12,503 bases of DNA from Promethearchaeota archaeon. Its GTDB lineage: Archaea; Asgardarchaeota; Lokiarchaeia; Sigyniarchaeales; SOKP01. Every line of letters starts with the position of its first letter. Position 1 is the first letter of the stretch. The notes beneath the pieces were generated by a model, which saw nothing but the letters and a program-made list of their open reading frames with translations, was not told the DNA's origin and searched no databases. Shown in pieces: positions 1 to 12,503 of this stretch. The stretch lies in NCBI GenBank assembly GCA_011364925.1, contig RDOA01000070.1, positions 1-12,503 of the forward strand, written 5' to 3'. Both the position numbers and the translations under genes were made by a program.

Positions 1-965
1 CTAAGCATTTCGAACTCCCTAAAAAAATGAAACGCGAAAAAAAGGGTGCAGATAAACCAGAAATGACAATGGATACTATACATGCGGTTGATGACATCAG
101 CTTTGAAGTAAAAAAAGGAGAGATTTTTGGATTTTTAGGGCCAAATGGTGCCGGGAAAACTACGACAATCCGAATGATGACTGGTGTCTTAAAACCAACG
201 AAGGGTAATATTGAGATTCTTGGTTTAGACGCTTGGAAAAATCAGATCGCTGTCAAACAATTCACTGGAAATGTACCTGAGATGGCAAATGTCTACTTTT
301 CATTTTCAGGTTGGGAAAATTTGATGTTTATAGGAGAGCTTTATGGAATTTCTAAAAAAGAACGGGTTATCACAGCGGAAAGCCTCTTAAAACAATTCGA
401 TCTATACGAAAAACGCAATCTTAAATCAAAAAAATATTCTAAGGGAATGAAACAACGATTATTGCTATGCATGGCATTAATGACGAATCCAAAAATCTTA
501 TTTCTTGACGAACCAACCGCTGGTCTTGATGTCCAATCAGCTAAAATTATAAAGCAACTAATAAGAGAGTACAATAAGCGAGGAGTAACGATTTTCTTAA
601 CGACGCACGATATGGATGTGGCAAACGAATTATGTGATCGGATTGCTATTATTAATCACGGTAAGATTATTAGCCTAGATACTCCGGATAATTTAAAGAA
701 ATTAACCCAGGAGTATCAAGCGATTGATCTCCAATTCATGAATGGCGTGGATAAACAAGAAATTAAAAACCTTAGTAACATCAAGGAGGTACAAGAAACT
801 CAAGACGGAGTTCACATTATTGTTGATGATATCCATGAGTCTATCTGTGAATTAGTGGATTACATCAAAAATCAGAATGTAAAAATTAAACAACTAAATA
901 CGCATCAACCAAAATTAGAGGAAGCTTTTCTAAAAATTATTGAACGGGGTGATAAACTTGATTGA
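1..965 (+). CDS. ABC exporter ATP-binding subunit, DrrA-like/ABC-2 type; probably 5'-truncated by the window edge
   Basis: Walker A GPNGAGKTT, signature YSKGMKQR, Walker B LFLDEPT, H-loop TTH and a ~90-aa C-terminal extension typical of this family. The frame is open upstream of ATG27 to the window start (KHFELPKKM), and KHF matches the usual N-terminal LTKxF strand, so the true start is likely before base 1. Confidence 0.93.
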   Translation, partial: KHFELPKKMKREKKGADKPEMTMDTIHAVDDISFEVKKGEIFGFLGPNGAGKTTTIRMMTGVLKPTKGNIEILGLDAWKNQIAVKQFTGNVPEMANVYFSFSGWENLMFIGELYGISKKERVITAESLLKQFDLYEKRNLKSKKYSKGMKQRLLLCMALMTNPKILFLDEPTAGLDVQSAKIIKQLIREYNKRGVTIFLTTHDMDVANELCDRIAIINHGKIISLDTPDNLKKLTQEYQAIDLQFMNGVDKQEIKNLSNIKEVQETQDGVHIIVDDIHESICELVDYIKNQNVKIKQLNTHQPKLEEAFLKIIERGDKLD

Positions 966-1746
966 AAACAATATAAGGTTAGAAGAACCTAAAATAAAGA
1001 CATTTGCTGTTCAATTAAAACGATCCTTTGTAATAACTAAAAAGGATTTAAAAATCTACTACAATAAACCTCCCGTTATAATTCAAGGGATACTTTTTCC
1101 GATAATATTATTCGTCGCTTTAACCGTAGGTAGAAATGTAGAATTAGTCTATGCGATTTCAGGATTAATGGCTATGATTACATTTTTAACATCAACTTCA
1201 ATAGGTCCAATAGTCTTCCCGTGGGAAACAATGAGAAGAACATTCGAACGATTAATAACTTGTCCAATTTCAATAAAAACTATTCTACTAGGGAGTGTTT
1301 GGAGTACTTTCATTTATGGAATTATTTTTTCTTCGCTTCCCTTAATATTTGGAATGATCTTCTTACCGGCTGAACTTTCAGTAAATCTAATAATAGTCAT
1401 TATTGGGATGATCGTAGCGGGATTAGCATTTGCTTGTTTTAGTCTTATATTGTCCGTACCTTCCACAGACACACCCGGAAATACTATGGTTTTTACGGTT
1501 CTAATTAAGTTTCCATTAGTATTCATGAGTCCGCTATTTATGCCGATAATTCTATCTCCAATTGCTTATATCTCTCCCTTGACCTATTTCGTTGACATAG
1601 TTAACACAGGACTAGGTGATAGCAGTGCTTTTGGATCGCTTGGGTTGCTTATTGATATTGGAGTTTTACTAGCCTTTGGATTAGGATTTCTATTTTTAGC
1701 ATTTCTATTACACAGTAAAACATTAGAAAGAAGATTTCGAGATTAA
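958..1746 (+). CDS. ABC-2 type transporter permease (DrrB-like), about 6 TM helices
   Basis: About six hydrophobic segments, ABC-2 motifs WETMRRTFERLITCPIS and SPLTYFVD, and an overlap with the ATPase stop. TTG958 is preferred over TTG940 because GGGGTGA (946-952) lies 5 nt upstream. Confidence 0.9.
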   Translation: MIENNIRLEEPKIKTFAVQLKRSFVITKKDLKIYYNKPPVIIQGILFPIILFVALTVGRNVELVYAISGLMAMITFLTSTSIGPIVFPWETMRRTFERLITCPISIKTILLGSVWSTFIYGIIFSSLPLIFGMIFLPAELSVNLIIVIIGMIVAGLAFACFSLILSVPSTDTPGNTMVFTVLIKFPLVFMSPLFMPIILSPIAYISPLTYFVDIVNTGLGDSSAFGSLGLLIDIGVLLAFGLGFLFLAFLLHSKTLERRFRD

Positions 1747-1756
1747 AAGTAAATTT

Positions 1757-1790
1757 CCTTTTTTTTTATATATGCTGTTATTTTTTATAA
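1757..1790 (+). terminator. Putative oligo-T (archaeal-type) terminator between convergent genes
   Basis: T9 run at 1759-1767 and T6 at 1781-1786 just after the permease stop, with no GC hairpin in front. Confidence 0.5.
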
Positions 1791-1794
1791 TTAT

Positions 1795-2532
1795 TCAGTA
1801 GATTTTGGGTACTAGTTTGTATTTTACTCGATTTCGATATTCCTCATAGCCATCCATTCCTTTTATAAGCATTTTTTCCTCAAATCGTATTCGCACAATC
1901 AACGCTATCGACCCAACAGCGGCAGGTATTAGCGATATCCAGGATCCTAACGCGATGGGAAGTCCAAGTATCATTACGATCGCTCCAGTGTAAAGCGGAT
2001 GACGAATATGGGCGTATAGTCCAGTATCAATAAGTTTTTGACCTTTATTTATATCCAATATTTTTGAAGCATAAGCATTTTGAACCATAGCAAGATCCAT
2101 GATAGTGAGACCAAGATTTAAGATCACAAGACCTATAATCTCCACATAGAAGGGAATTGTAACCCATTGGAAACGGTAATCTAATGGAGGTAATAATATT
2201 GCACCAAAAAACCCAATACTGATAAGTGGCATTATAAAGAGGTCTGATCGCGAAGAACTTTTTGTTTTTTCTGTAACACCAATTTTTTTTAATTTCATAC
2301 GATTTCGAATAACGCGTGGATTCTTCTTGTTTATGAGAGCAGTACTGATAGTAAAGTTTATCACAAATGAAATGATGAAAAGCCATGCTTCAATCCACAA
2401 CCAATCCTGAGCGAGAGGAAATAGGATAATTATGAACAATGCTGAAACATACACAGGGATGAGAGCTATCCCCCAAAGAGGAATGGGTTTATCCATCTTA
2501 TCAATTTCATTGGGTGGTGTTCCATTTGACAT
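1795..2532 (-). CDS. Isoprenylcysteine carboxyl methyltransferase (ICMT/PEMT/Ste14) family integral membrane methyltransferase
   Basis: Multiple TM segments and family motifs LIDTGLYAHIRHPLYTG and RIRFEEKML...YEEYRNRVKYKLVP. Start is ATG2532 or TTG2544. Confidence 0.9.
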   Translation of the reverse strand: MSNGTPPNEIDKMDKPIPLWGIALIPVYVSALFIIILFPLAQDWLWIEAWLFIISFVINFTISTALINKKNPRVIRNRMKLKKIGVTEKTKSSSRSDLFIMPLISIGFFGAILLPPLDYRFQWVTIPFYVEIIGLVILNLGLTIMDLAMVQNAYASKILDINKGQKLIDTGLYAHIRHPLYTGAIVMILGLPIALGSWISLIPAAVGSIALIVRIRFEEKMLIKGMDGYEEYRNRVKYKLVPKIY

Positions 2533-2544
2533 GATTTTAATCAA

Positions 2545-2683
2545 TGAGCAGTAGAATTAAAAATTATTCATTTCAGTCGCTTTTTCACTTAGTTTTTACT
2601 ATTTTAGGTAGATTTAAAAACTAAATTTTCTTATGGATTCATAACGATCTATATTCATAACGAATTCAAGAGACTTATTGAAT
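2545..2683. promoter_or_regulatory. Divergent promoter region with TATA-like boxes and a candidate PadR operator
   Basis: TTTTTAA on the - strand (2563-2557) about 25 nt upstream of ATG2532; TTTAAAAA at 2613-2620 on +; near-palindrome TTATG-gatt-CATAA at 2631-2644; perfect 11-bp direct repeat ATTCATAACGA at 2637-2647 and 2653-2663. Confidence 0.55.
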
Positions 2684-3265
2684 ATGTCTTCTGAGAAAAA
2701 TTTAGAATTAAGTCATGTTTCTTTTACTGTTTTAGGGCTAATATCAGAATATCCGTGTCATGGAAAAGATATAAATGGAAGAATTGAAGAAAGAGGTATG
2801 AGAGCTTGGACAGCTATAGGTGAATCATCTGTTTACGGAGTATTGAAGAATCTAAAGGAAAATGGATTAGTTGATTCGTGGATGGAAGAGGAAAATAATA
2901 GGCTAGTGAAAATTTACAAGATCACAGATAAAGGGATTAATATACTTAAGAAAAGGATATATAAAAGCCTTAATGAGTATAATGGTAGAAATGATCCTGA
3001 TTTCTATATGGCATTTTCAATGCTACCTTATTTATCTGAGAAAGAACTGACTGAAGTATTTAAAAATTCATTAAAAACGATAAAAAAACACAAATTGGAA
3101 TTGGAGAAAATGTTAGGAGAGAATTCTAAGATGCCATTGAATGTTAGGGGTTTGTTCATCCATCCAATTAATATATTACAAACGGATATTGAATTTTTAG
3201 AAATGGTTTTAGATGAAATTAAGAAAGGAGGAGGTCAAATTAACACAAAGACACATAATAAATAA
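2684..3265 (+). CDS. PadR-family winged-helix transcriptional regulator with long C-terminal helical domain
   Basis: VLGLISEYPCHGKDI...IGESSVYGVLKNLKENGLV...KIYKITDKG matches the PadR wHTH pattern. Start is ATG2684, or TTG2678 in the same frame. Confidence 0.92.
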   Translation: MSSEKNLELSHVSFTVLGLISEYPCHGKDINGRIEERGMRAWTAIGESSVYGVLKNLKENGLVDSWMEEENNRLVKIYKITDKGINILKKRIYKSLNEYNGRNDPDFYMAFSMLPYLSEKELTEVFKNSLKTIKKHKLELEKMLGENSKMPLNVRGLFIHPINILQTDIEFLEMVLDEIKKGGGQINTKTHNK

Positions 3266-4373
3266 TTTTGTTCATAGAATTGGTCATCATTGTGAATCCT
3301 CGTCGATGAGAGATTTACTTGAATTTCATGGTTTTCCTATGTCTGAACCGATGGTATTCGGTTTAGATGCTACAATGGGTTTCGGATTCTTTGACACTAC
3401 TAATAGTGTTTCGTTTATACCGGAATCTGACATACCCTTCTTCCTTGGAGGTAAGCAAGGAACAATAGAACCAAACTCTCTGGCTTGCCGTTTATTAGGA
3501 ATCACCTTACGGAAACAGTCATTTACTAGTGCTGATAAAGCGTGGGAAGAGTCAAAAATTATGCTAATCCAAAATCAACCTTTAATCCTCAAAGTTGATT
3601 TGGGATATCTAACTTATTTTGAAGAGGAGGGAGATATTCATTTCGGTGGACATGCGATTACTTTAGCGGGTTACGATGAGGAAAAAGGATTTGCTTATAT
3701 TGGTGATACAGACTATGAAGGATTCCAAGAAATCTCTATTGAAAAACTCAAGGAGGCGAGAAGTTCTGAATACGGCCCTAAATTCATGCACCCCAATAAC
3801 GCTCAATTTTCCATGACTAAAAGACCAGATGGGAAGCGCCCACCTTTAGCTGCTGGAACAAAAGTAGCAATTCAAAAAGTTGTAAACAATATGTTACGCC
3901 CCTCTGTAAATAATAACGGTATTCAAGGATTAAAACATTTTACCAATTCAATTCCATTGTGGAAAGAGAAATTGGTAGGAGAAGCTAAAGATCCCCAGGG
4001 AAAATCTATCTCACGCGCGAGGTTAATGTTTGAACTATTACATGGGTATATTGAGACCTGGGGTACTGGTGGAGCGAGTTTTCGCAATCTATATACGCAA
4101 TTTTTAGAAGAACTGCTCAGTCATCCTGAGATAAGAAAGGGACCTAAAGCATGGAGTAATGAAGACTTTAAGATTATAGAGGTTAGTATACCATTAATAA
4201 AGGATTCTGCCAAGTATTGGACTTTAATAGCAGAAACATTAAAAAAGGCAGCAGACGAGCACAAAAATGATTGTTTAAATAATGTAGATTTGAGTAAGTT
4301 GCAGGAATACGCAGAATTAATACTCAATAGGGAAGAAACATTGTTCAAGAATTTATTAAAACTAAGAATATAA
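3213..4373 (+). CDS. BtrH N-terminal domain (papain/C39-like fold) plus DUF4872-like C-terminal domain; putative cysteine hydrolase
   Basis: GHHCESSSMRDLL...SEPMVFGL, VDLGYLTYF...HFGGHAITLAGYD, YIGD and ETWGTGGASFRNLYTQFLEE are patterns I recognise from BtrH_N/DUF4872 proteins. Candidate triad is Cys27/His147/Asp165. The start codon is uncertain. Confidence 0.82.
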   Translation: MKLRKEEVKLTQRHIINNFVHRIGHHCESSSMRDLLEFHGFPMSEPMVFGLDATMGFGFFDTTNSVSFIPESDIPFFLGGKQGTIEPNSLACRLLGITLRKQSFTSADKAWEESKIMLIQNQPLILKVDLGYLTYFEEEGDIHFGGHAITLAGYDEEKGFAYIGDTDYEGFQEISIEKLKEARSSEYGPKFMHPNNAQFSMTKRPDGKRPPLAAGTKVAIQKVVNNMLRPSVNNNGIQGLKHFTNSIPLWKEKLVGEAKDPQGKSISRARLMFELLHGYIETWGTGGASFRNLYTQFLEELLSHPEIRKGPKAWSNEDFKIIEVSIPLIKDSAKYWTLIAETLKKAADEHKNDCLNNVDLSKLQEYAELILNREETLFKNLLKLRI

Positions 4374-4386
4374 AGGGATAGTAAAG

Positions 4387-4815
4387 ATGAGTGAAAAAAA
4401 TTTAGCAGCTCCATGTGGGATGTATTGTGGTGCGTGTAGATCATATTTAATACTTAAAAAGAATTTGTTAGAAGAAAAAGGACGCAAAAATGGTTGTAAA
4501 GGGTGTAGAATTCGAAATAAAAATTGTTCTTTTATAAAGAAAGATTGTGCGTTAATAAGAAAAAACGAAATTGATTTCTGTTTCGAATGCGATAGTTTTC
4601 CATGTTCAAATTTACAGAGGATTGATGGAAGATATTCTGAAAGGTATAATGTAAGTTTTATTCAGAATTTAAAAAGAATACAAGAAATCGGATTTGAGCG
4701 ATGGCTCGAGGAACAAGAAATTTTGTATCGATGTCCGGATTGTGGTGGAGAAATTAGCGTTCATGATAAAGAATGTTTTGATTGTGGCAAGAAAATAAAT
4801 CCAAATTTAAAATAA
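4387..4815 (+). CDS. Cys-rich DUF3795-like metal-binding protein with C-terminal zinc ribbon
   Basis: APCGMYCGAC, CKGCR and FCFECDSFPC pattern plus CPDC-x10-CFDC; 14 Cys in 142 aa. Confidence 0.82.
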   Translation: MSEKNLAAPCGMYCGACRSYLILKKNLLEEKGRKNGCKGCRIRNKNCSFIKKDCALIRKNEIDFCFECDSFPCSNLQRIDGRYSERYNVSFIQNLKRIQEIGFERWLEEQEILYRCPDCGGEISVHDKECFDCGKKINPNLK

Positions 4816-4837
4816 TGAATTTTAGGTATGAGTGAGA

Positions 4838-7333
4838 ATGGATAAAATTAAAGTGGTGGGAGCTAGGCTTCATAATTTAAAAAATTTGAACGTAGAAATC
4901 CCGAAGAAAAAAATGGTCTTAATAACAGGAGTATCAGGTTCAGGAAAATCAAGCTTAGCTTTTGACATTATATTTGACGAAGGAATGAATCGATACTTAC
5001 AATCTATAGGATTTCCCCCAAAATTTGAGGACGAAAAACCTTTTGATTTACTGGAAGGGTTAAGTCCTACTGTAGCAGTGGAGCAACGGACAACTCGAGT
5101 ACTTAATCCGCGTTCCACTGTGGGCACAAAAACTCGATTATACAACCTACTTAGGATGTTATATGCTACAGAGGGTTCCTTAATTTGTCCAATATGCAAA
5201 GAACCCGTAAATGAGAATCTTGAATGCAATATTTGTGGAATGGTCGTAGAACGATTGGAGATTAAACATTTCAGTTTTAACGAACCAAGCGGTATGTGTT
5301 TAGCCTGTAAAGGACGGGGTTACCAAATGCATCTTACAGAAGAACTGATAGTTCAAGATTACAATAAAAACCTTATTCAAATTACTAAAGCAGGATCAGC
5401 GGTCTTTGCAGATCAGATTCGATTTATTGAACAATTACCTAAATTTTATAATTTCGACATTAAAACACCATATAAAGATTTACCGGAAGAAGTTAAGCAG
5501 GTCTTCCTTTACGGAAGCGGTAAAAAACTTTCTTTTGATTGGGATTCGAAAACGTTTACGGGGACCTTAGAAAGAGTATTTGAAGGAGTTATTCCACACA
5601 TAGAGCGTGCTCTCACAGAATCAAAGAGTTCGTATCGCCGAGATAAAATTCATAAGAATTACATGTCATTGAAAAAATGCGAAGAATGTGAGGGATATCG
5701 AATAAACGAACAAGCAAGAGGGGTAAAATTAGGAGGAAAACATATAGGGGAATTGGGAATGATGCCTATTGATGAATTAAGCTCCTTTCTTGAAGATTTG
5801 AGTAAAAATAATATTTCAACGGTTCAAGGTAAAAATTTATGTGAATTAGTGATAAAAAGCCTTAAAAATATGAAGGATGTAGGATTAGGATACATTCATC
5901 TGCACCGTGCATTACCGACACTAAGTGGTGGAGAACTCCAGAGATTATCTTTAATGACTCATCTAGACGCAGGGATAGATTCCCTTATCTACATTTTAGA
6001 CGAGCCAAGTATGAGTTTACACGAATTGGAAAAGGATTCTTTAATAGAACTGTTAAAAAAGTTGAAACGATTAGGGAATACAATTATAGTTGTTGAGCAT
6101 GATAAACGTTTTATTGAGATAGCAGACCAAGTAATTGATATCGGTCCCGGTGCAGGAGTGAATGGCGGAGAATTAGTCTACCAAGGAGCATTAGACGGAT
6201 TGAAAAATGTAGATAAGTCCTATACTGGCCAATTTCTCACCGGTAAAATATCGTTACCAGTAAAATCGGATGAGTTAAAAAAAGTGGTCAAGGATTCAAC
6301 AATGTTTCTAACAATAAAAAATGTCAAAACTAACAATTTAAAGAATGTAGAAGTTAAAATTCCATTAGGCATGATGGTAGGAATTGCGGGCGTATCTGGA
6401 TCGGGGAAAAGTTCTTTAATTTTAGACACATTAGTTCCACTTTTGCAACCATTTTTCAAGCGTGGTAATGATAGAAATAAGATTGAAGATAATGAAAATG
6501 GTGAAGAGGAAAATGGAGAAGAACTTCTTGAATACTCTGGAATGATTAGCGGTTGGGAAAATTTAGATGAAGTTATCGTAGTTAGTCAAAAACCAATTTC
6601 AAGGGTTAAAACTTCTACACCAGCGTCATATATTGGGATTTGGGACAAAATTAGGAATATTTTTGCTAAAGTAGTCGAAGCAAAAAAACGTAAATATTCA
6701 GCGGGTCATTTTTCCTATAATTCCGATAAAGGACGATGTCCATCCTGCAAGGGAACTGGCGAACAAGACTTAAAGATATCATTTTTGAGTAGTTTTAATA
6801 TCTTATGCAGAGAATGTCATGGACTTAGATATAAGCCAGAAATACTAGAGGTAAAATATAAAGGTAAATCAATTGCCGATGTGTTAAATATGACCGTTTC
6901 AGAAGCAGCTAAATTATTCGCGTCAGATTCTAGCATATCCAATGTATTGCAGATCCTGGAAGATATAGGTATGGGGTATATAACTTTAGGGCAACCAGCT
7001 CCAACATTAAGCGGCGGAGAAGCTCAAAGAGTTAAACTCGCTAAGGAACTTGGAAGAGCTAGAAAAACAAGATCACTCTATGTTCTGGACGAACCTACAG
7101 TTGGATTATCGTTTTATGATGTAGTAAAATTAATAGAACTTTTAGATCAATTAGTACGAGAAGGAAATAGTGTCATAATTATAGAACATGATCCGGAAAT
7201 CTTATCATACTGCGATTATCTTATAGAATTGGGACCTGAAGGAGGACCAAAAGGAGGAAAAGTGATCGCAGAAGGTCCTGTAGCTAAAATTAAAGAGAAT
7301 ATTAACTCGAATACCAGTAAATATTTAAAATAA
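4838..7333 (+). CDS. uvrA: UvrA-family ATPase lacking the UvrB-binding domain (class II UvrA2/DrrC-like)
   Basis: GARLHNLKN, two GVSGSGKSS Walker A motifs, LSGGELQR and LSGGEAQR signatures, LDEP Walker B motifs, EHD H-loops and three Zn modules. Only 9 aa separate CPIC and CNIC, where canonical UvrA carries the UvrB-binding domain. Start is ATG4838 or GTG4832. The symbol denotes the family, not the housekeeping ortholog. Confidence 0.9.
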   Translation: MDKIKVVGARLHNLKNLNVEIPKKKMVLITGVSGSGKSSLAFDIIFDEGMNRYLQSIGFPPKFEDEKPFDLLEGLSPTVAVEQRTTRVLNPRSTVGTKTRLYNLLRMLYATEGSLICPICKEPVNENLECNICGMVVERLEIKHFSFNEPSGMCLACKGRGYQMHLTEELIVQDYNKNLIQITKAGSAVFADQIRFIEQLPKFYNFDIKTPYKDLPEEVKQVFLYGSGKKLSFDWDSKTFTGTLERVFEGVIPHIERALTESKSSYRRDKIHKNYMSLKKCEECEGYRINEQARGVKLGGKHIGELGMMPIDELSSFLEDLSKNNISTVQGKNLCELVIKSLKNMKDVGLGYIHLHRALPTLSGGELQRLSLMTHLDAGIDSLIYILDEPSMSLHELEKDSLIELLKKLKRLGNTIIVVEHDKRFIEIADQVIDIGPGAGVNGGELVYQGALDGLKNVDKSYTGQFLTGKISLPVKSDELKKVVKDSTMFLTIKNVKTNNLKNVEVKIPLGMMVGIAGVSGSGKSSLILDTLVPLLQPFFKRGNDRNKIEDNENGEEENGEELLEYSGMISGWENLDEVIVVSQKPISRVKTSTPASYIGIWDKIRNIFAKVVEAKKRKYSAGHFSYNSDKGRCPSCKGTGEQDLKISFLSSFNILCRECHGLRYKPEILEVKYKGKSIADVLNMTVSEAAKLFASDSSISNVLQILEDIGMGYITLGQPAPTLSGGEAQRVKLAKELGRARKTRSLYVLDEPTVGLSFYDVVKLIELLDQLVREGNSVIIIEHDPEILSYCDYLIELGPEGGPKGGKVIAEGPVAKIKENINSNTSKYLK
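6494..6523 (+). repeat. Imperfect 15-bp tandem duplication encoding ENGEE x2 in an acidic loop
   Basis: GAAAATGGTGAAGAG and GAAAATGGAGAAGAA, 13/15 identical. Confidence 0.6.
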
Positions 7334-7349
7334 ATAAAGTTAAACTATT

Positions 7350-10300
7350 ATGGAAATTAAAATTCGAGGAGCACGAGAACATAATTTAAAGGATATTGAT
7401 GTTGATATACAAGATGGGATTACAGCGGTAACAGGAGTATCAGGTTCAGGAAAAACTTCGCTTATATTTGACACATTATATAAAGAAGCGCGTCGTAGGT
7501 TTTTGGAAGCTTTTTCGGTCCGTAAAGATAAAGTAAACTTAAGCCCGGCGAAGGTAGAATCCATCAATGGACTTGGACCCATGATTGCCCTTGGTCAAAA
7601 TGTCCTAAATAGAAATCCTAATTCCACTCTTGCGTCAGCGACGGGTTTAATTCCTCTCTTTAAAATATTGTTCTCCAGATTTGGAGTAAGGAAGTGCCAT
7701 GTATGTGGTAATAAAATAACTGTATTACAAGAAGATGAGATTGTTGCCAAAATTGATAATTTAAGAAAGAAAGGGACCTTAAAAATATCTGCCTTATTGG
7801 TAAATAAAGTGAAAGGGAGTCATCATACGCTACTAGAACTTTTAGAAAAAGAATTTGGATCAGAAGCGGTTTTGGTAGATGGATCTTCTTTCACAACAAA
7901 TCTTAACCCAAAAGAACCTCACGACATTCAAATTCAAATTGGTCAAGTATCAGCAATGACCGATCTAAACACAATTAGAGGAATTATCCAAACTATAAGT
8001 TCATTAGGAGCAAATTCATTAATTATTGATACTAAATCAAGATCGATATCCATCTCTCGAGTTCCTGTGTGTTCGATATGCGGTACTTGGTTTGGAGATC
8101 TAGAACCGACTCATTTTACGAAAAACTGTCCTTATTGTAAGGGAGAGGGTTGCAAGCAATGTAATAACTCAGGGTATCACCCCCTCGCATCAAATGTTAC
8201 TTGGGAGGGACTATTTTTTACCGAGATCTTAGAAAAATCGGTAAAAGACTTAGTTTCTATTTTTTCTAGAGAAGATTTAGATGTCTCTGAAAGATTATTA
8301 CAGGAAATTAAGAAACGAGTTTTAGCTTTAAGCTCCGTTGGTTTAGATTACTTAGCATTGGATCGAATTTCTCCGACTCTATCGAGAGGTGAATCTCAAA
8401 GAGTTCGATTAGCTATAGCGTTATTAAGCGAGTTAGAAGATATAACTCATTTGCTTGATGAACCAACGATTGGTCAGCATCCTGCAGATACTGCACGAAT
8501 TTTACCTGTACTTCAAAAATTGGCAGGTCCAGTTATTTTTATTGAACACGATCGGGCAGCTACAGCGTTTGCAGATTATGTAATCGATATTGGACCCGGT
8601 GCGGGAAGAGAAGGAGGGAAAATCATATTTACAGGGACTTCTGCGGAATTATGGAAAGCTGATACTCCCACAGGTCGATATTTTAGTTTAAAAGACAAGG
8701 TAATTGCTCTAAAAAATAGACCAAAACCTCAGAGTTTTTTGACAATTAATAATGCTAATATGCATAACTTAAAAGATATAGACATTAAGGTTCCATTAAA
8801 TCGTCTAACGGTCGTTACAGGCGTTTCTGGTTCAGGAAAGAGCACTCTCGTAGAAGATGTTCTATATGCTACTTTGAAAGGAAAAAAGCCAATGGGATGT
8901 GATGGAATCATTGGTCTAAAAGTGAAACCTGTTATGGTAGATCAAGGACCAATTGGGAAAAATCCGAGATCGAATCCAGCAACATATACAGAGATCGCTG
9001 ATACTATTAGAAAATTGTTTGCCAAAGCTACTAAACTCAAAGCCACCTACTTTTCCTTTAATACTCCGGAAGGACAGTGTCCAACATGTAAAGGAATGGG
9101 TGCTCTCGAAATAAAGATGAGGTATTTGCCTTCTAATTGGCTTACTTGTCCAGATTGCAGTGGTCAAAGGTTTTCGGAAGATGTACTTGCTAAAACGGTA
9201 AATTTTGAAGGTAAAGAATATTCTATTGCAGAATTTTACGATCTTTCTATTTTAGAAGTTACAAAGATTTTTGAGAAAGAGAAAAGATTATCTACAGACG
9301 CTTTAAGCTCCATCAAGCAAATGCTAAAAGCTCTTAGTGACATTGGCTTAGGATATCTATCGCTTGGACAACCTTCTCCAACACTTTCAGGAGGGGAAGC
9401 ACAGCGAATTAAATTGTCAAAATATCTTGGGAGAAAATCCTTAAAGGATTCATTAATTATCCTTGATGAACCGTCAACGGGATTACATCCCCAAGATCTG
9501 GGAGGCTTATTAGCAATTTTAGATCGCTTAATTCGTAGTGGGGCTACTATTGTTATTGTAGAACATAATATAGACATCATCAGAGCTGCAGACTGGATCA
9601 TAGACCTTGGACCAGGTTCGGGACCAAGTGGTGGGACTGTCGTATATCAAGGTCCATTAAATCAATTTACGGAGGTAAAAAATTCTTTCACAGCTCAAGC
9701 ACTAAATGAAGAAAGTAAAATTTTACCATTAACTTCGAAAGAGAGAAAAGAAAGAAGAAGTTCAGAAAAGATTGTCATTCAAAACGCACATCTTCACAAT
9801 CTAAAAAATTTGAATGTTTCAATACCTAAAAGGAAACTTACTGTAGTCACGGGAGTTTCGGGGTCTGGAAAGTCTAGCTTGATGATGGATACGCTAGAAA
9901 AAGAAGCAAGTCGAAGATATTTAGAAACATTATCAATGTACGAGAGACAAAGTACTAAAGAAAGTAGCGAAGCTTTAGTAGAAAACATTCAAGGTTTAGG
10001 TATAACAGCTCTAATAACTCCTGAAAAAATTATGCAAGGGTGGTTTCTTAATCTTCGAAATACCATCGGAAAAGTTACTGAAATCACACTCCATTTGGCA
10101 AACATTTTCGCTTATATGGGTGAACGGGATTGCCCCAAATGTAATCAAAAAATGTTAAGGAAGGAAAAATGGTATTGCCCTAAGTGTAGTACTTCTATAC
10201 AACTTCCAAAACCAAGGCATTTTGTAAGTACAAACTACTCTGCGGCTTGTCTTAAGTGCCATGGAGTAGGCTCGTTTCAAGTCCCTAATCCAAATAAATT

Positions 10301-12221
10301 GATCATTCAACCTGAAAAAGCCCTTTGTAAAGGGGCCATGTATTCGCCGGGTTTCTTTCCTAAAGGTTTTCTATGTAAGCCGTATAATAGTGGTTACTAT
10401 GTTGTTCAAGCTCTCGCAACTCGCTATGGTTTTGATCCATTTGAAACACCTTGGAACGAAATGTCTGAAGCGGCTAAAAATGCTTTCTTATACGGTGATA
10501 AAAACCCTTTATATATAGACTATGAAAACAGAAAAGGAGAAGTACATAATCAGGAATTTGTTTTTCTGGGTTATTACGATCAATGGTTAAGAGATTGGGA
10601 TGTAGGAGGTACGTATACTGATAAAGAAGTATGTAATGCATGCAACGGAATGAAGTTACGACCGGAATATCTTGCTGTGACTCTTCTTGGATATAATATG
10701 CCGCAATTATGCGATCTTCCGTTAAAACACCTCTATGAAACACTAAAGGATGTAAGAATTGAAAAAAATATTCAAAGTTTTGTAAAAAATAGCCATAAAA
10801 TAATTCTAACCCGGTTAGAATTTCTTATTAAAACGGGATTAGGCTACATTAAATTGAATCGTGTCGCTGAGACTCTCTCTGCAGGAGAAGCTCAGAGAGT
10901 ACGTTTGGCAGGATTATTAGGCAGCGATTTATCATCGTTAACAGTCTTATTAGATGAGCCATCGAGAGGATTACATCCTTCTGAAATAGAGACATTGCTA
11001 GAAGTATTATACGAATTACGAGATAGGGGCAATACAATTATAATCATAGAACATGATCCCTTATTTATGAAAACAGCTGATTATATTATTGATATGGGAC
11101 CTGGAGCGGGAATTAATGGTGGTCAAATTGTAGCTAGAGGAACGCCAGAAGAAATTGAAAACTCAAAGAGTGTTACAGGAGACTGGTTAATAGGAAAAAA
11201 GAAATTTATGATATCAAGAGAACCTCGGAAATCTAAGAGTTGGTTAAAGGTTTTTGGAGCTAAAGAGAATAACTTAAAAGGTGATTTAGTTGAGATTCCT
11301 CATGGGTTAATAGTGGGGTTATGTGGGATTTCAGGTTCGGGGAAAAGCACTTTATTAATTGACACTTTAGGAAGAGCTCTCGTTCCTGCAAAGTATACAA
11401 CTTCAGTATCTCGAGAACCCGTCGATCCAGGAAAATATGAGAAGATTGAAGGCGCTTTACCCCAAACACTGCTAATAGATCAATCTAAAGTAAAAATTGG
11501 AAGCCCTTTGAAATATCTAGGAATAGAATCCTCTATAATAAAAATATACGCTGAAACTGAAGATGCAAAAATTTTAGGATTAAATGAAAAGAAATTAAAA
11601 ACGAGATGCTCTATGTGTGATGGACGTGGATATGTTAAAATAGATATGGACTTTTTACCAGATTTAATCGAAGATTGTGAAATTTGCAACGGTTCAGGTT
11701 ATCGGACTGAAGCTTGGCAAGTATACTTTAAAGGAGTATCGTTACCCAAAGTGAATAGTTTAACTATAGAAGAAGCATACAAATTATTTAGAGACAACGA
11801 AAGCATTGCTAGTAAATTAAAATATGCAAAGAAGGTTGGACTTGGTTATTTACAATTATCTCAACCCGCGCGCACACTTTCTGGAGGCGAAGCACAAAGA
11901 CTTAAAATTGTAAAAGAACTAGCTAAAAAATCTAATAAAAAAACGCTCTATATTTTAGACGAACCCACAATTGGTCAACATTTGGAAGACGTTTCTAATT
12001 TAATTAAGACATTAAATCTTTTAGTTGATAAGGGTCATACTGTAGTCGTTATTGAACATCATCCTCATGTCTTGGCGTCGTGCGATTGGTTAATAGAACT
12101 TGGTCCGGGAGCAGGTCCAGAAGGAGGTCGAGTGATTGCTAAAGGTTCTCCTAAAGAAGTCGCAAAATTAAATACGCCAACTGCATCGTACTTAAAAAAG
12201 GTAATGGAGGGTGGATTATGA
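7350..12221 (+). CDS. uvrA: Double-length UvrA-family ATPase (two fused UvrA units, four ABC modules)
   Basis: Four Walker A motifs (GVSGSGKTS, GVSGSGKST, GVSGSGKSS, GISGSGKST), four signatures (LSRGE, LSGGE, LSAGE, LSGGE), four LDEP, four EH loops, four D/E-x-GPGxGxxGG motifs and six Zn modules in one uninterrupted 1623-codon frame. Unit 2 starts near aa 807 (nt 9768). Confidence 0.92.
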   Translation: MEIKIRGAREHNLKDIDVDIQDGITAVTGVSGSGKTSLIFDTLYKEARRRFLEAFSVRKDKVNLSPAKVESINGLGPMIALGQNVLNRNPNSTLASATGLIPLFKILFSRFGVRKCHVCGNKITVLQEDEIVAKIDNLRKKGTLKISALLVNKVKGSHHTLLELLEKEFGSEAVLVDGSSFTTNLNPKEPHDIQIQIGQVSAMTDLNTIRGIIQTISSLGANSLIIDTKSRSISISRVPVCSICGTWFGDLEPTHFTKNCPYCKGEGCKQCNNSGYHPLASNVTWEGLFFTEILEKSVKDLVSIFSREDLDVSERLLQEIKKRVLALSSVGLDYLALDRISPTLSRGESQRVRLAIALLSELEDITHLLDEPTIGQHPADTARILPVLQKLAGPVIFIEHDRAATAFADYVIDIGPGAGREGGKIIFTGTSAELWKADTPTGRYFSLKDKVIALKNRPKPQSFLTINNANMHNLKDIDIKVPLNRLTVVTGVSGSGKSTLVEDVLYATLKGKKPMGCDGIIGLKVKPVMVDQGPIGKNPRSNPATYTEIADTIRKLFAKATKLKATYFSFNTPEGQCPTCKGMGALEIKMRYLPSNWLTCPDCSGQRFSEDVLAKTVNFEGKEYSIAEFYDLSILEVTKIFEKEKRLSTDALSSIKQMLKALSDIGLGYLSLGQPSPTLSGGEAQRIKLSKYLGRKSLKDSLIILDEPSTGLHPQDLGGLLAILDRLIRSGATIVIVEHNIDIIRAADWIIDLGPGSGPSGGTVVYQGPLNQFTEVKNSFTAQALNEESKILPLTSKERKERRSSEKIVIQNAHLHNLKNLNVSIPKRKLTVVTGVSGSGKSSLMMDTLEKEASRRYLETLSMYERQSTKESSEALVENIQGLGITALITPEKIMQGWFLNLRNTIGKVTEITLHLANIFAYMGERDCPKCNQKMLRKEKWYCPKCSTSIQLPKPRHFVSTNYSAACLKCHGVGSFQVPNPNKLIIQPEKALCKGAMYSPGFFPKGFLCKPYNSGYYVVQALATRYGFDPFETPWNEMSEAAKNAFLYGDKNPLYIDYENRKGEVHNQEFVFLGYYDQWLRDWDVGGTYTDKEVCNACNGMKLRPEYLAVTLLGYNMPQLCDLPLKHLYETLKDVRIEKNIQSFVKNSHKIILTRLEFLIKTGLGYIKLNRVAETLSAGEAQRVRLAGLLGSDLSSLTVLLDEPSRGLHPSEIETLLEVLYELRDRGNTIIIIEHDPLFMKTADYIIDMGPGAGINGGQIVARGTPEEIENSKSVTGDWLIGKKKFMISREPRKSKSWLKVFGAKENNLKGDLVEIPHGLIVGLCGISGSGKSTLLIDTLGRALVPAKYTTSVSREPVDPGKYEKIEGALPQTLLIDQSKVKIGSPLKYLGIESSIIKIYAETEDAKILGLNEKKLKTRCSMCDGRGYVKIDMDFLPDLIEDCEICNGSGYRTEAWQVYFKGVSLPKVNSLTIEEAYKLFRDNESIASKLKYAKKVGLGYLQLSQPARTLSGGEAQRLKIVKELAKKSNKKTLYILDEPTIGQHLEDVSNLIKTLNLLVDKGHTVVVIEHHPHVLASCDWLIELGPGAGPEGGRVIAKGSPKEVAKLNTPTASYLKKVMEGGL

Positions 12222-12503
12222 CTTGGATTCCACTTTTATTAACTGATCCCTCCCCATGTTTAAGATATTTGGTTTTAACTGAATTACTAAATTATTCTAA
12301 AAATGAAGAGGAAGTCCAAGAGTTATCGGAACTGCGAAAATCAGATCAACTTGTACAAAGTCTGTTTAAACTTCAAAAACGGGATGGATCTTGGGATTCT
12401 TTTGGTTTAATTCGGATAACTTCCAACAGTAATCTCCATATAACTTCTATGGCATTACAAAGATTGGGATATCTGGGATTTGATTTTAGAAATCCAGCAG
12501 TAC
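12218..12503 (+). CDS. 3'-truncated protein with QW motif; probable prenyltransferase/squalene-cyclase-like alpha-alpha toroid fold
   Basis: Not in the ORF track. ATGA overlap with the uvrA stop, GGAGG at 12206-12210, frame open to the window end: MTWIPLLLTDPSPCLRYLVLTELLNYSKNEEEVQELSELRKSDQLVQSLFKLQKRDGSWDSFGLIRITSNSNLHITSMALQRLGYLGFDFRNPAV. LQKRDGSW fits QxxDGxW and is followed by a TSMALQRL helix. Confidence 0.72.
   Translation, partial: MTWIPLLLTDPSPCLRYLVLTELLNYSKNEEEVQELSELRKSDQLVQSLFKLQKRDGSWDSFGLIRITSNSNLHITSMALQRLGYLGFDFRNPAV

Follow-up and report, generated by a model that had tools for sequence, protein, structure and literature searches.

A double-length Asgard UvrA with complementary halves and a coupled alpha/alpha-barrel gene: a putative accessory DNA-surveillance module

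The locus and its features

The window, i.e., the whole 12,503-nucleotide stretch of DNA analyzed, is an entire contig of a 3.9-Mb, 33% GC genome, the closest homologues of which carry Promethearchaeota and other Asgard labels. Its features are the following:

2678..4815, + strand: PadR regulator, BtrH-like protein and DUF3795 protein, the operon head in this lineage
4832..7333, + strand: single UvrA, 833 aa, UvrB-binding domain (UBD) absent, insertion domain present; operon neighbor in this lineage only
7350..12221, + strand: double-length UvrA, 1623 aa, with four ABC nucleotide-binding domains
7350..9710, + strand: unit 1 (aa 1-787), with the UBD fold and LSRGE as signature I; insertion domain and wedge lost
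7707..8069, + strand: UBD-fold domain of unit 1 (aa 120-240), without canonical UvrB-contact residues
7797..7856, + strand: GSHxTLLxLL helix specific to the family (aa 150-169), predicted to form the core of the interface with the barrel
8127..8162, + strand: unit-1 Zn module 2 with a 4-aa stub, insertion domain deleted
8943..9062, + strand: unit-1 signature-II DNA-binding motifs (Q532, GKNPRSNPATY, R554, FSFN), family-conserved
9705..9767, + strand: inter-unit linker, 19-27 aa across homologues
9765..12221, + strand: unit 2 (aa 806-1623), lacking the UBD, with the insertion domain and with hairpin F1435 kept
9939..9950, + strand: wedge residues Y864 and Q867 of unit 2, matching C. thermocellum Y62/Q65
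10131..10187, + strand: unit-2 Zn module 1 with an 11-aa stub, UBD deleted
10260..10631, + strand: unit-2 insertion (DNA-binding) domain (aa 971-1094), with aromatic motifs specific to the family
12218..12503, + strand: alpha/alpha-barrel partner, first 95 aa, its ATGA overlapping the UvrA stop; the gene is truncated by the contig end

The translation of the double-length UvrA contains four sets each of Walker A, Walker B, signature and H-loop motifs and 12 CxxC pairs, with three Zn modules per unit and with the catalytic Glu, Lys and His retained throughout; the protein thus displays the tandem ABC ATPase units, the Zn modules and the fold that characterize the UvrA family. A sequence-only reading had described it as a pseudo-dimer whose halves have lost complementary domains, and rereading of the translation bears this out: in unit 1 CHVC (aa116) and CSIC (aa241) are separated by 121 aa, whereas only 4 aa lie between CPYC (nt 8127) and CKQC (nt 8151-8162), so that the insertion domain is gone; unit 2 has the reverse layout, with 11 aa between its two CPKC motifs (nt 10131 and 10176-10187) and 124 aa between CLKC (aa967) and CNAC (aa1095). 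The insertion domain is recognized by Pfam UvrA_DNA-bind (residues 1015-1076, 31.2 bits, above cut-off); the match of UvrA_inter to residues 129-225 (20.6 bits) falls slightly below the cut-off of 23.3, a threshold passed by many orthologues. The predicted model of unit 1 (pLDDT 89.7) superposes on 3uwx_A with a TM of 0.91 (774 of 787 residues aligned at 3.0 Å), indicating that residues 120-240 have the UvrB-binding fold, as had been supposed.

Conservation and rarity of the complementary layout

The layout is kept in 125 homologues from Asgard archaea, Bathyarchaeia and Anaerolineae. Across 117 aligned full-length sequences, the unit-1 UBD spacer measures 121-133 aa and the insertion stub is 4 aa in all, while the corresponding unit-2 spacers measure 11-21 (UBD stub) and 121-127 aa (insertion domain). 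A chance arrangement, an artefactual fusion or an assembly artefact is ruled out by the 125 full-length homologues and their near-invariant spacers. The two units are 31% identical and the halves of the family form two separate clades on long stems with 100% SH-aLRT, so that a recent internal duplication is also ruled out; an origin of unit 2 from the adjacent single UvrA is supported by neither of two trees, the single UvrA not being its sister. By the measure of these alignments and trees, the double UvrA consists of two long-diverged units having complementary parts.

The rarity of this arrangement was surveyed by splitting 346 four-NBD proteins into halves and measuring both inserts, the sample being biased by the queries. 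The layouts found were complete/complete (115), complete/insertion-less (73), double UBD-less (22) and complementary (125); the first three layouts are all common, and other fused UvrAs often lack the insertion domain on one side (73 of the 346 sampled), whereas the fully complementary pattern is, within this query-biased sample, confined to one family. Single-unit UvrAs of 840-870 aa which carry the UBD and lack the insertion domain also exist (L052, L053, L054, L057, L061, L062, L078); such proteins nest among class I, which indicates that the insertion domain was lost repeatedly. Two tandem UBD-bearing uvrA genes lie beside uvrB in some Asgard families and a fused 1919-1975-aa form occurs in others; these constitute a natural split/fused series (G301:C76:29864 and 32764; G295:C52; G239:C14). 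Split genes also occur (L044:1902-6232; L155:4171-6703; L165:5812-8322): the double UvrA of G023 is broken past about aa 480, and in both G010 and G023 the single UvrA is interrupted close to aa 155.

A metagenome scan returned generic UvrAs only, which served as background; no plasmid match to the module was found, and promoter and terminator scans gave hits at chance level.

Residue-level differences between the two units

Residue roles for the comparison of alignment columns were taken from PMC12796330 and PMC3025350. In unit 1 the signature-II motifs (PRS, TY, R554, which is equivalent to R712, and FSFN) are 98-100% conserved in the family and both Q-loops are kept, while the wedge is lost. 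The family column comparison finds the signature-II motifs absent from unit 2, which has also lost the proximal Q-loop Gln, and finds the wedge residues Y864/Q867 (98%) and the hairpin F1435 (100%) conserved there; judged from these motifs, the DNA-binding elements of the two units sum to one complete set. Signature I reads LSRGE in unit 1 and LSAGE in unit 2; the canonical UvrA of the same genome has LSVGE, so that an altered signature I is, by itself, no proof of a dead site.

The UBD of unit 1 has the fold and not the contacts of its canonical counterpart. The columns that contact UvrB, conserved at 83-97% in class I (the E219 column being D/E in 87%), are not conserved in the double UvrA, and the charged face of the canonical domain is replaced by the family-specific GSHxTLLxLL helix. 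The lost residues comprise the GYVR and VDR arginines, which we take to be UvrB contacts in the 3FPN interface, and the equivalents of R216 and E222. The latter two are the E. coli UvrA residues contacting UvrB (PMC3025350). Of the earlier proposal that one partner-docking and one insertion domain are hard-wired on opposite halves, the arrangement stands, but UvrB is probably not the docked partner.

Relationship to known UvrA systems

With the Class I homodimer and its UvrA2UvrB1 and UvrA2UvrB2 complexes (3UWX, 3PIH, 9GA3, 9GXK) the double UvrA shares the fold, the Zn modules, Walker A/B and the H-loops, and by summed score it lies above the cut-offs of both Class I models, TIGR00630 and PRK00349. 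It differs in being a single chain with one UBD and one insertion domain, in which wedge and signature-II clamp are split between the halves, and in being devoid of UvrB-contact residues, encoded outside the uvrB operon and coupled to a barrel gene. Thus, neither the presence of UBD and insertion domain within one protomer nor the conserved UvrB-contact residues of Class I are found. In the asymmetric UvrA2UvrB1-DNA state, one protomer engages its UBD and frees its insertion domain while the other holds its insertion domain on the lesion, the two activities being mutually exclusive within a protomer (PMC11985968); the fixed layout of the double UvrA mirrors this state.

Like the Class II proteins (Ecm16, DrrC, D. 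radiodurans UvrA2), the double UvrA is an accessory paralogue present beside a canonical UvrA, and its unit 2 likewise lacks the UBD and has the insertion domain. Ecm16 guards against a DNA intercalator without NER (PMC9328131, PMC10192343). Class IIa UvrAs have neither UBD nor Zn module 1 (PMC9328131), whereas here unit 1 has the UBD and both units have Zn module 1; furthermore, the Ecm16/DrrC type acts alone as a homodimer, unlike the double UvrA with its coupled partner gene.

Two UvrA units per chain are also found in the Chlamydiae-type PRK00635 proteins and in the 1700-1980-aa forms. The double UvrA, however, scores 890.6 bits with PRK00635, below the cut-off of 3054; the sampled two-UBD fusions largely keep the UvrB residues, the wedge and the DNA motifs in both halves, and the halves of the complementary family form clades of their own. 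No description of the complementary architecture or of the UvrA-barrel gene pair was found in the literature searched, which contained no text defining the double-length classes; the module is an apparently undescribed, accessory double-length UvrA variant with a predicted new partner.

The barrel partner

In relatives, the protein truncated in the window has about 344 aa (range 323-362 aa). Its gene follows uvrA with a 4-nt overlap at 21 of 22 junctions and directly abuts it at the remaining one, and it persists beside even 40%-identical double UvrAs, every other neighbor being different. A hand-counted census of 301 Asgard genomes, related members of which are not independent, gave 68 carriers in the search for each gene; both genes are present in 66 of these 68, a figure that includes the truncated barrel copy of the genome of the window (G000), and in 59 of the 66, not counting G000, they lie on one contig. 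The two exceptions are a contig break and a joint deletion remnant. In the latter (L176:6064-7063) the double UvrA stops after its initial ~137 aa and is joined straight to the final ~205 aa of the barrel, which indicates that the module decays as one unit. The barrel gene is therefore coupled to the double UvrA.

Fold comparisons place the protein among squalene-hopene cyclase, prenyltransferase and thioester-domain barrels (PF13243, PF00432), with which it shares the fold and QW-like repeats; it differs in being a single barrel, 13-17% identical to them, with another invariant center and no functional match. Among solved structures it comes closest to cyclase/TED barrels, which are distant, and the matches (Z about 15, rmsd 4.3-5.4 Å) give no function. 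A class II terpene cyclase was rejected as its identity, the protein being a single 344-aa barrel with no DxDD in the alignment. Cys194, Asp259 and Trp169, invariant in both barrel groups and lying outside the predicted interface with UvrA, may be catalytic.

Docking was modelled for a close orthologue, L001, by folding its UBD (aa 105-256) with its own barrel, using alignments built by the authors; in the region of the interface helix the window protein is 75% identical to this orthologue and has the same numbering. The complex reached an ipSAE of 0.82, the best control 0.31; the mark applied is reached by 58 of 80 solved pairs and by 2 of 110 mismatched pairs. At least 76% of the contacts are common to the runs, and the partner pLDDT is at least 84. 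On the UBD side, the predicted interface centers on aa 150-169, the helix that conservation had singled out before docking, and includes the equivalents of UvrB contacts at 173, 198-199, 208 and 211; on the barrel side it comprises residues 4-42 and the tail 328-338. This tail has low confidence when the barrel is folded alone, is conserved and is apparently absent from the paralogue accompanying the UBD-less single UvrA. Conservation is 0.60 at interface positions and 0.79 in the core, against 0.44 for the remaining UBD. The barrel is thus predicted to dock to the unit-1 UBD fold at a face overlapping the UvrB site, and the complex score, being a model's confidence, supports such binding in the orthologue. 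We know of no comparable UBD-barrel complex. A distant barrel paralogue also accompanies a UBD-less single UvrA, so that barrels need not act via the UBD.

Genomic context

In the lineage of the window the UvrA-barrel pair closes a padR-btrH-DUF3795-(methyltransferase)-single uvrA operon, whereas at most loci outside this lineage no single UvrA adjoins the double UvrA. Operons devoid of the pair usually contain a distant barrel paralogue, which is missing where double UvrA and barrel occur. A genus operon consisting of padR-btrH-barrel paralogue-DUF3795-(second btrH)-methyltransferase-single UBD-less uvrA is conserved in many genomes of the genus (L148-L165, e.g., L149:3021-10615; window 2678-7333). 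Upstream of padR and divergent from it, the window (27-2544) encodes an ICMT-family methyltransferase together with a DrrA/B-type ABC-2 transporter pair; the synteny of this segment is limited to close relatives. Another recurrent neighbor, located downstream of either the single UvrA or the barrel, is a ~205-aa HEAT/ARM-like protein that belongs to no named family (L149:11950-12564, L136:2548-3168, L151, L153-L156, L159).

The canonical uvrB-uvrA (contig C28) and uvrC (contig C53) of the same genome lie away from the module, and uvrB was absent beside the double UvrA in every locus read. Most carriers have a canonical UvrA domain and uvrB is present in 60 of 67, a distribution that gives no proof of independence from UvrB. 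In other Asgard genomes the neighbors include Fpg/Nei, AlkZ-like, AlkD-like, radical-SAM and aminoglycoside-adenylyltransferase genes. The repair-type neighbors, with an apparently frameshifted radical-SAM gene included, are at L166:6731-7594, L172:3094-3918, L168:16371-17525, L174:16955-18877 and L047:472-1349. Such repair and resistance genes, taken as plain occurrences, would suggest a role in genotoxin defense.

Proposed mechanism and alternatives

The reading to which we lean, with moderate confidence, is that double UvrA and barrel form an accessory two-protein DNA-surveillance sensor apart from UvrABC, probably UvrB-independent, which passes its target to the barrel. The two units would pack like a UvrA2 dimer within one chain, unit 1 anchoring one DNA arm via the signature-II clamp and carrying the barrel, while unit 2 would probe the helix with its wedge Tyr, hairpin Phe and insertion domain through ATP cycles. 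The barrel, not UvrB, could then receive the target, be it a bulky adduct or a drug bound to the DNA; most speculatively, the barrel, with its Cys194/Asp259/Trp169 center and an Arg/Tyr loop, might modify or sequester the ligand or lesion, or else serve as an adaptor. Intramolecular pseudo-dimer packing is plausible, and so is the directional action that the sequence-only reading had proposed. A further-reaching version, in which the frozen asymmetric UvrA delivers a new alpha/alpha-barrel enzyme class to adducts via the repurposed UBD, in a UvrB/UvrC-independent repair or drug-removal pathway, strikes us as rather doubtful.

An arrangement in which the halves do not pack together, the chain dimerizing in trans or pairing with the upstream single UvrA, appears improbable. 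The halves are only 31% identical, unit 2 lacks the dimer-interface residue P83, neither half retains F66, and a single UvrA adjoins in this lineage; however, equivalents of R54/Y55 are present in both halves, the linker is nearly constant in length, and the single UvrA does not adjoin at most loci elsewhere. An equally low probability is assigned to an ATP-driven remodeller or activator of a barrel enzyme devoted to small-molecule detoxification, DNA binding being vestigial or merely regulatory: the strict 1:1 coupling to a probable enzyme, the loss of half of the DNA contacts from each unit and the PadR/BtrH/methyltransferase surroundings agree with it, but not the 98-100% conservation of the surviving DNA motifs, which jointly make one complete set over two units. 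Least credible is a hard-wired UvrA2 with one-sided loading of a single UvrB for directional excision with the host UvrB/UvrC, the barrel being a site-capping regulator: the retained UBD fold, the frequent uvrB of the carriers and a layout fitting the UvrA2UvrB1 intermediate would suit it, but the UBD contact residues are lost, signature II, which is the second UvrB interface of UvrA (PMC12796330), has diverged in unit 2, uvrB is adjacent in none of the loci read and most carriers already have a canonical UvrA domain.

Implications

Two questions on UvrA are open (PMC11985968, PMC12796330): how a symmetric dimer gives rise to a complex that is asymmetric and has a single partner, and which element, wedge or insertion domain, reads the lesion. 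Since the double UvrA separates these elements by half, its ATP sites, wedge, clamp and insertion domain can be altered individually. Furthermore, the predicted complex suggests that the UBD can be redirected to a partner of unrelated fold; if so, this would offer a first way into a barrel family that is widespread and uncharacterized.
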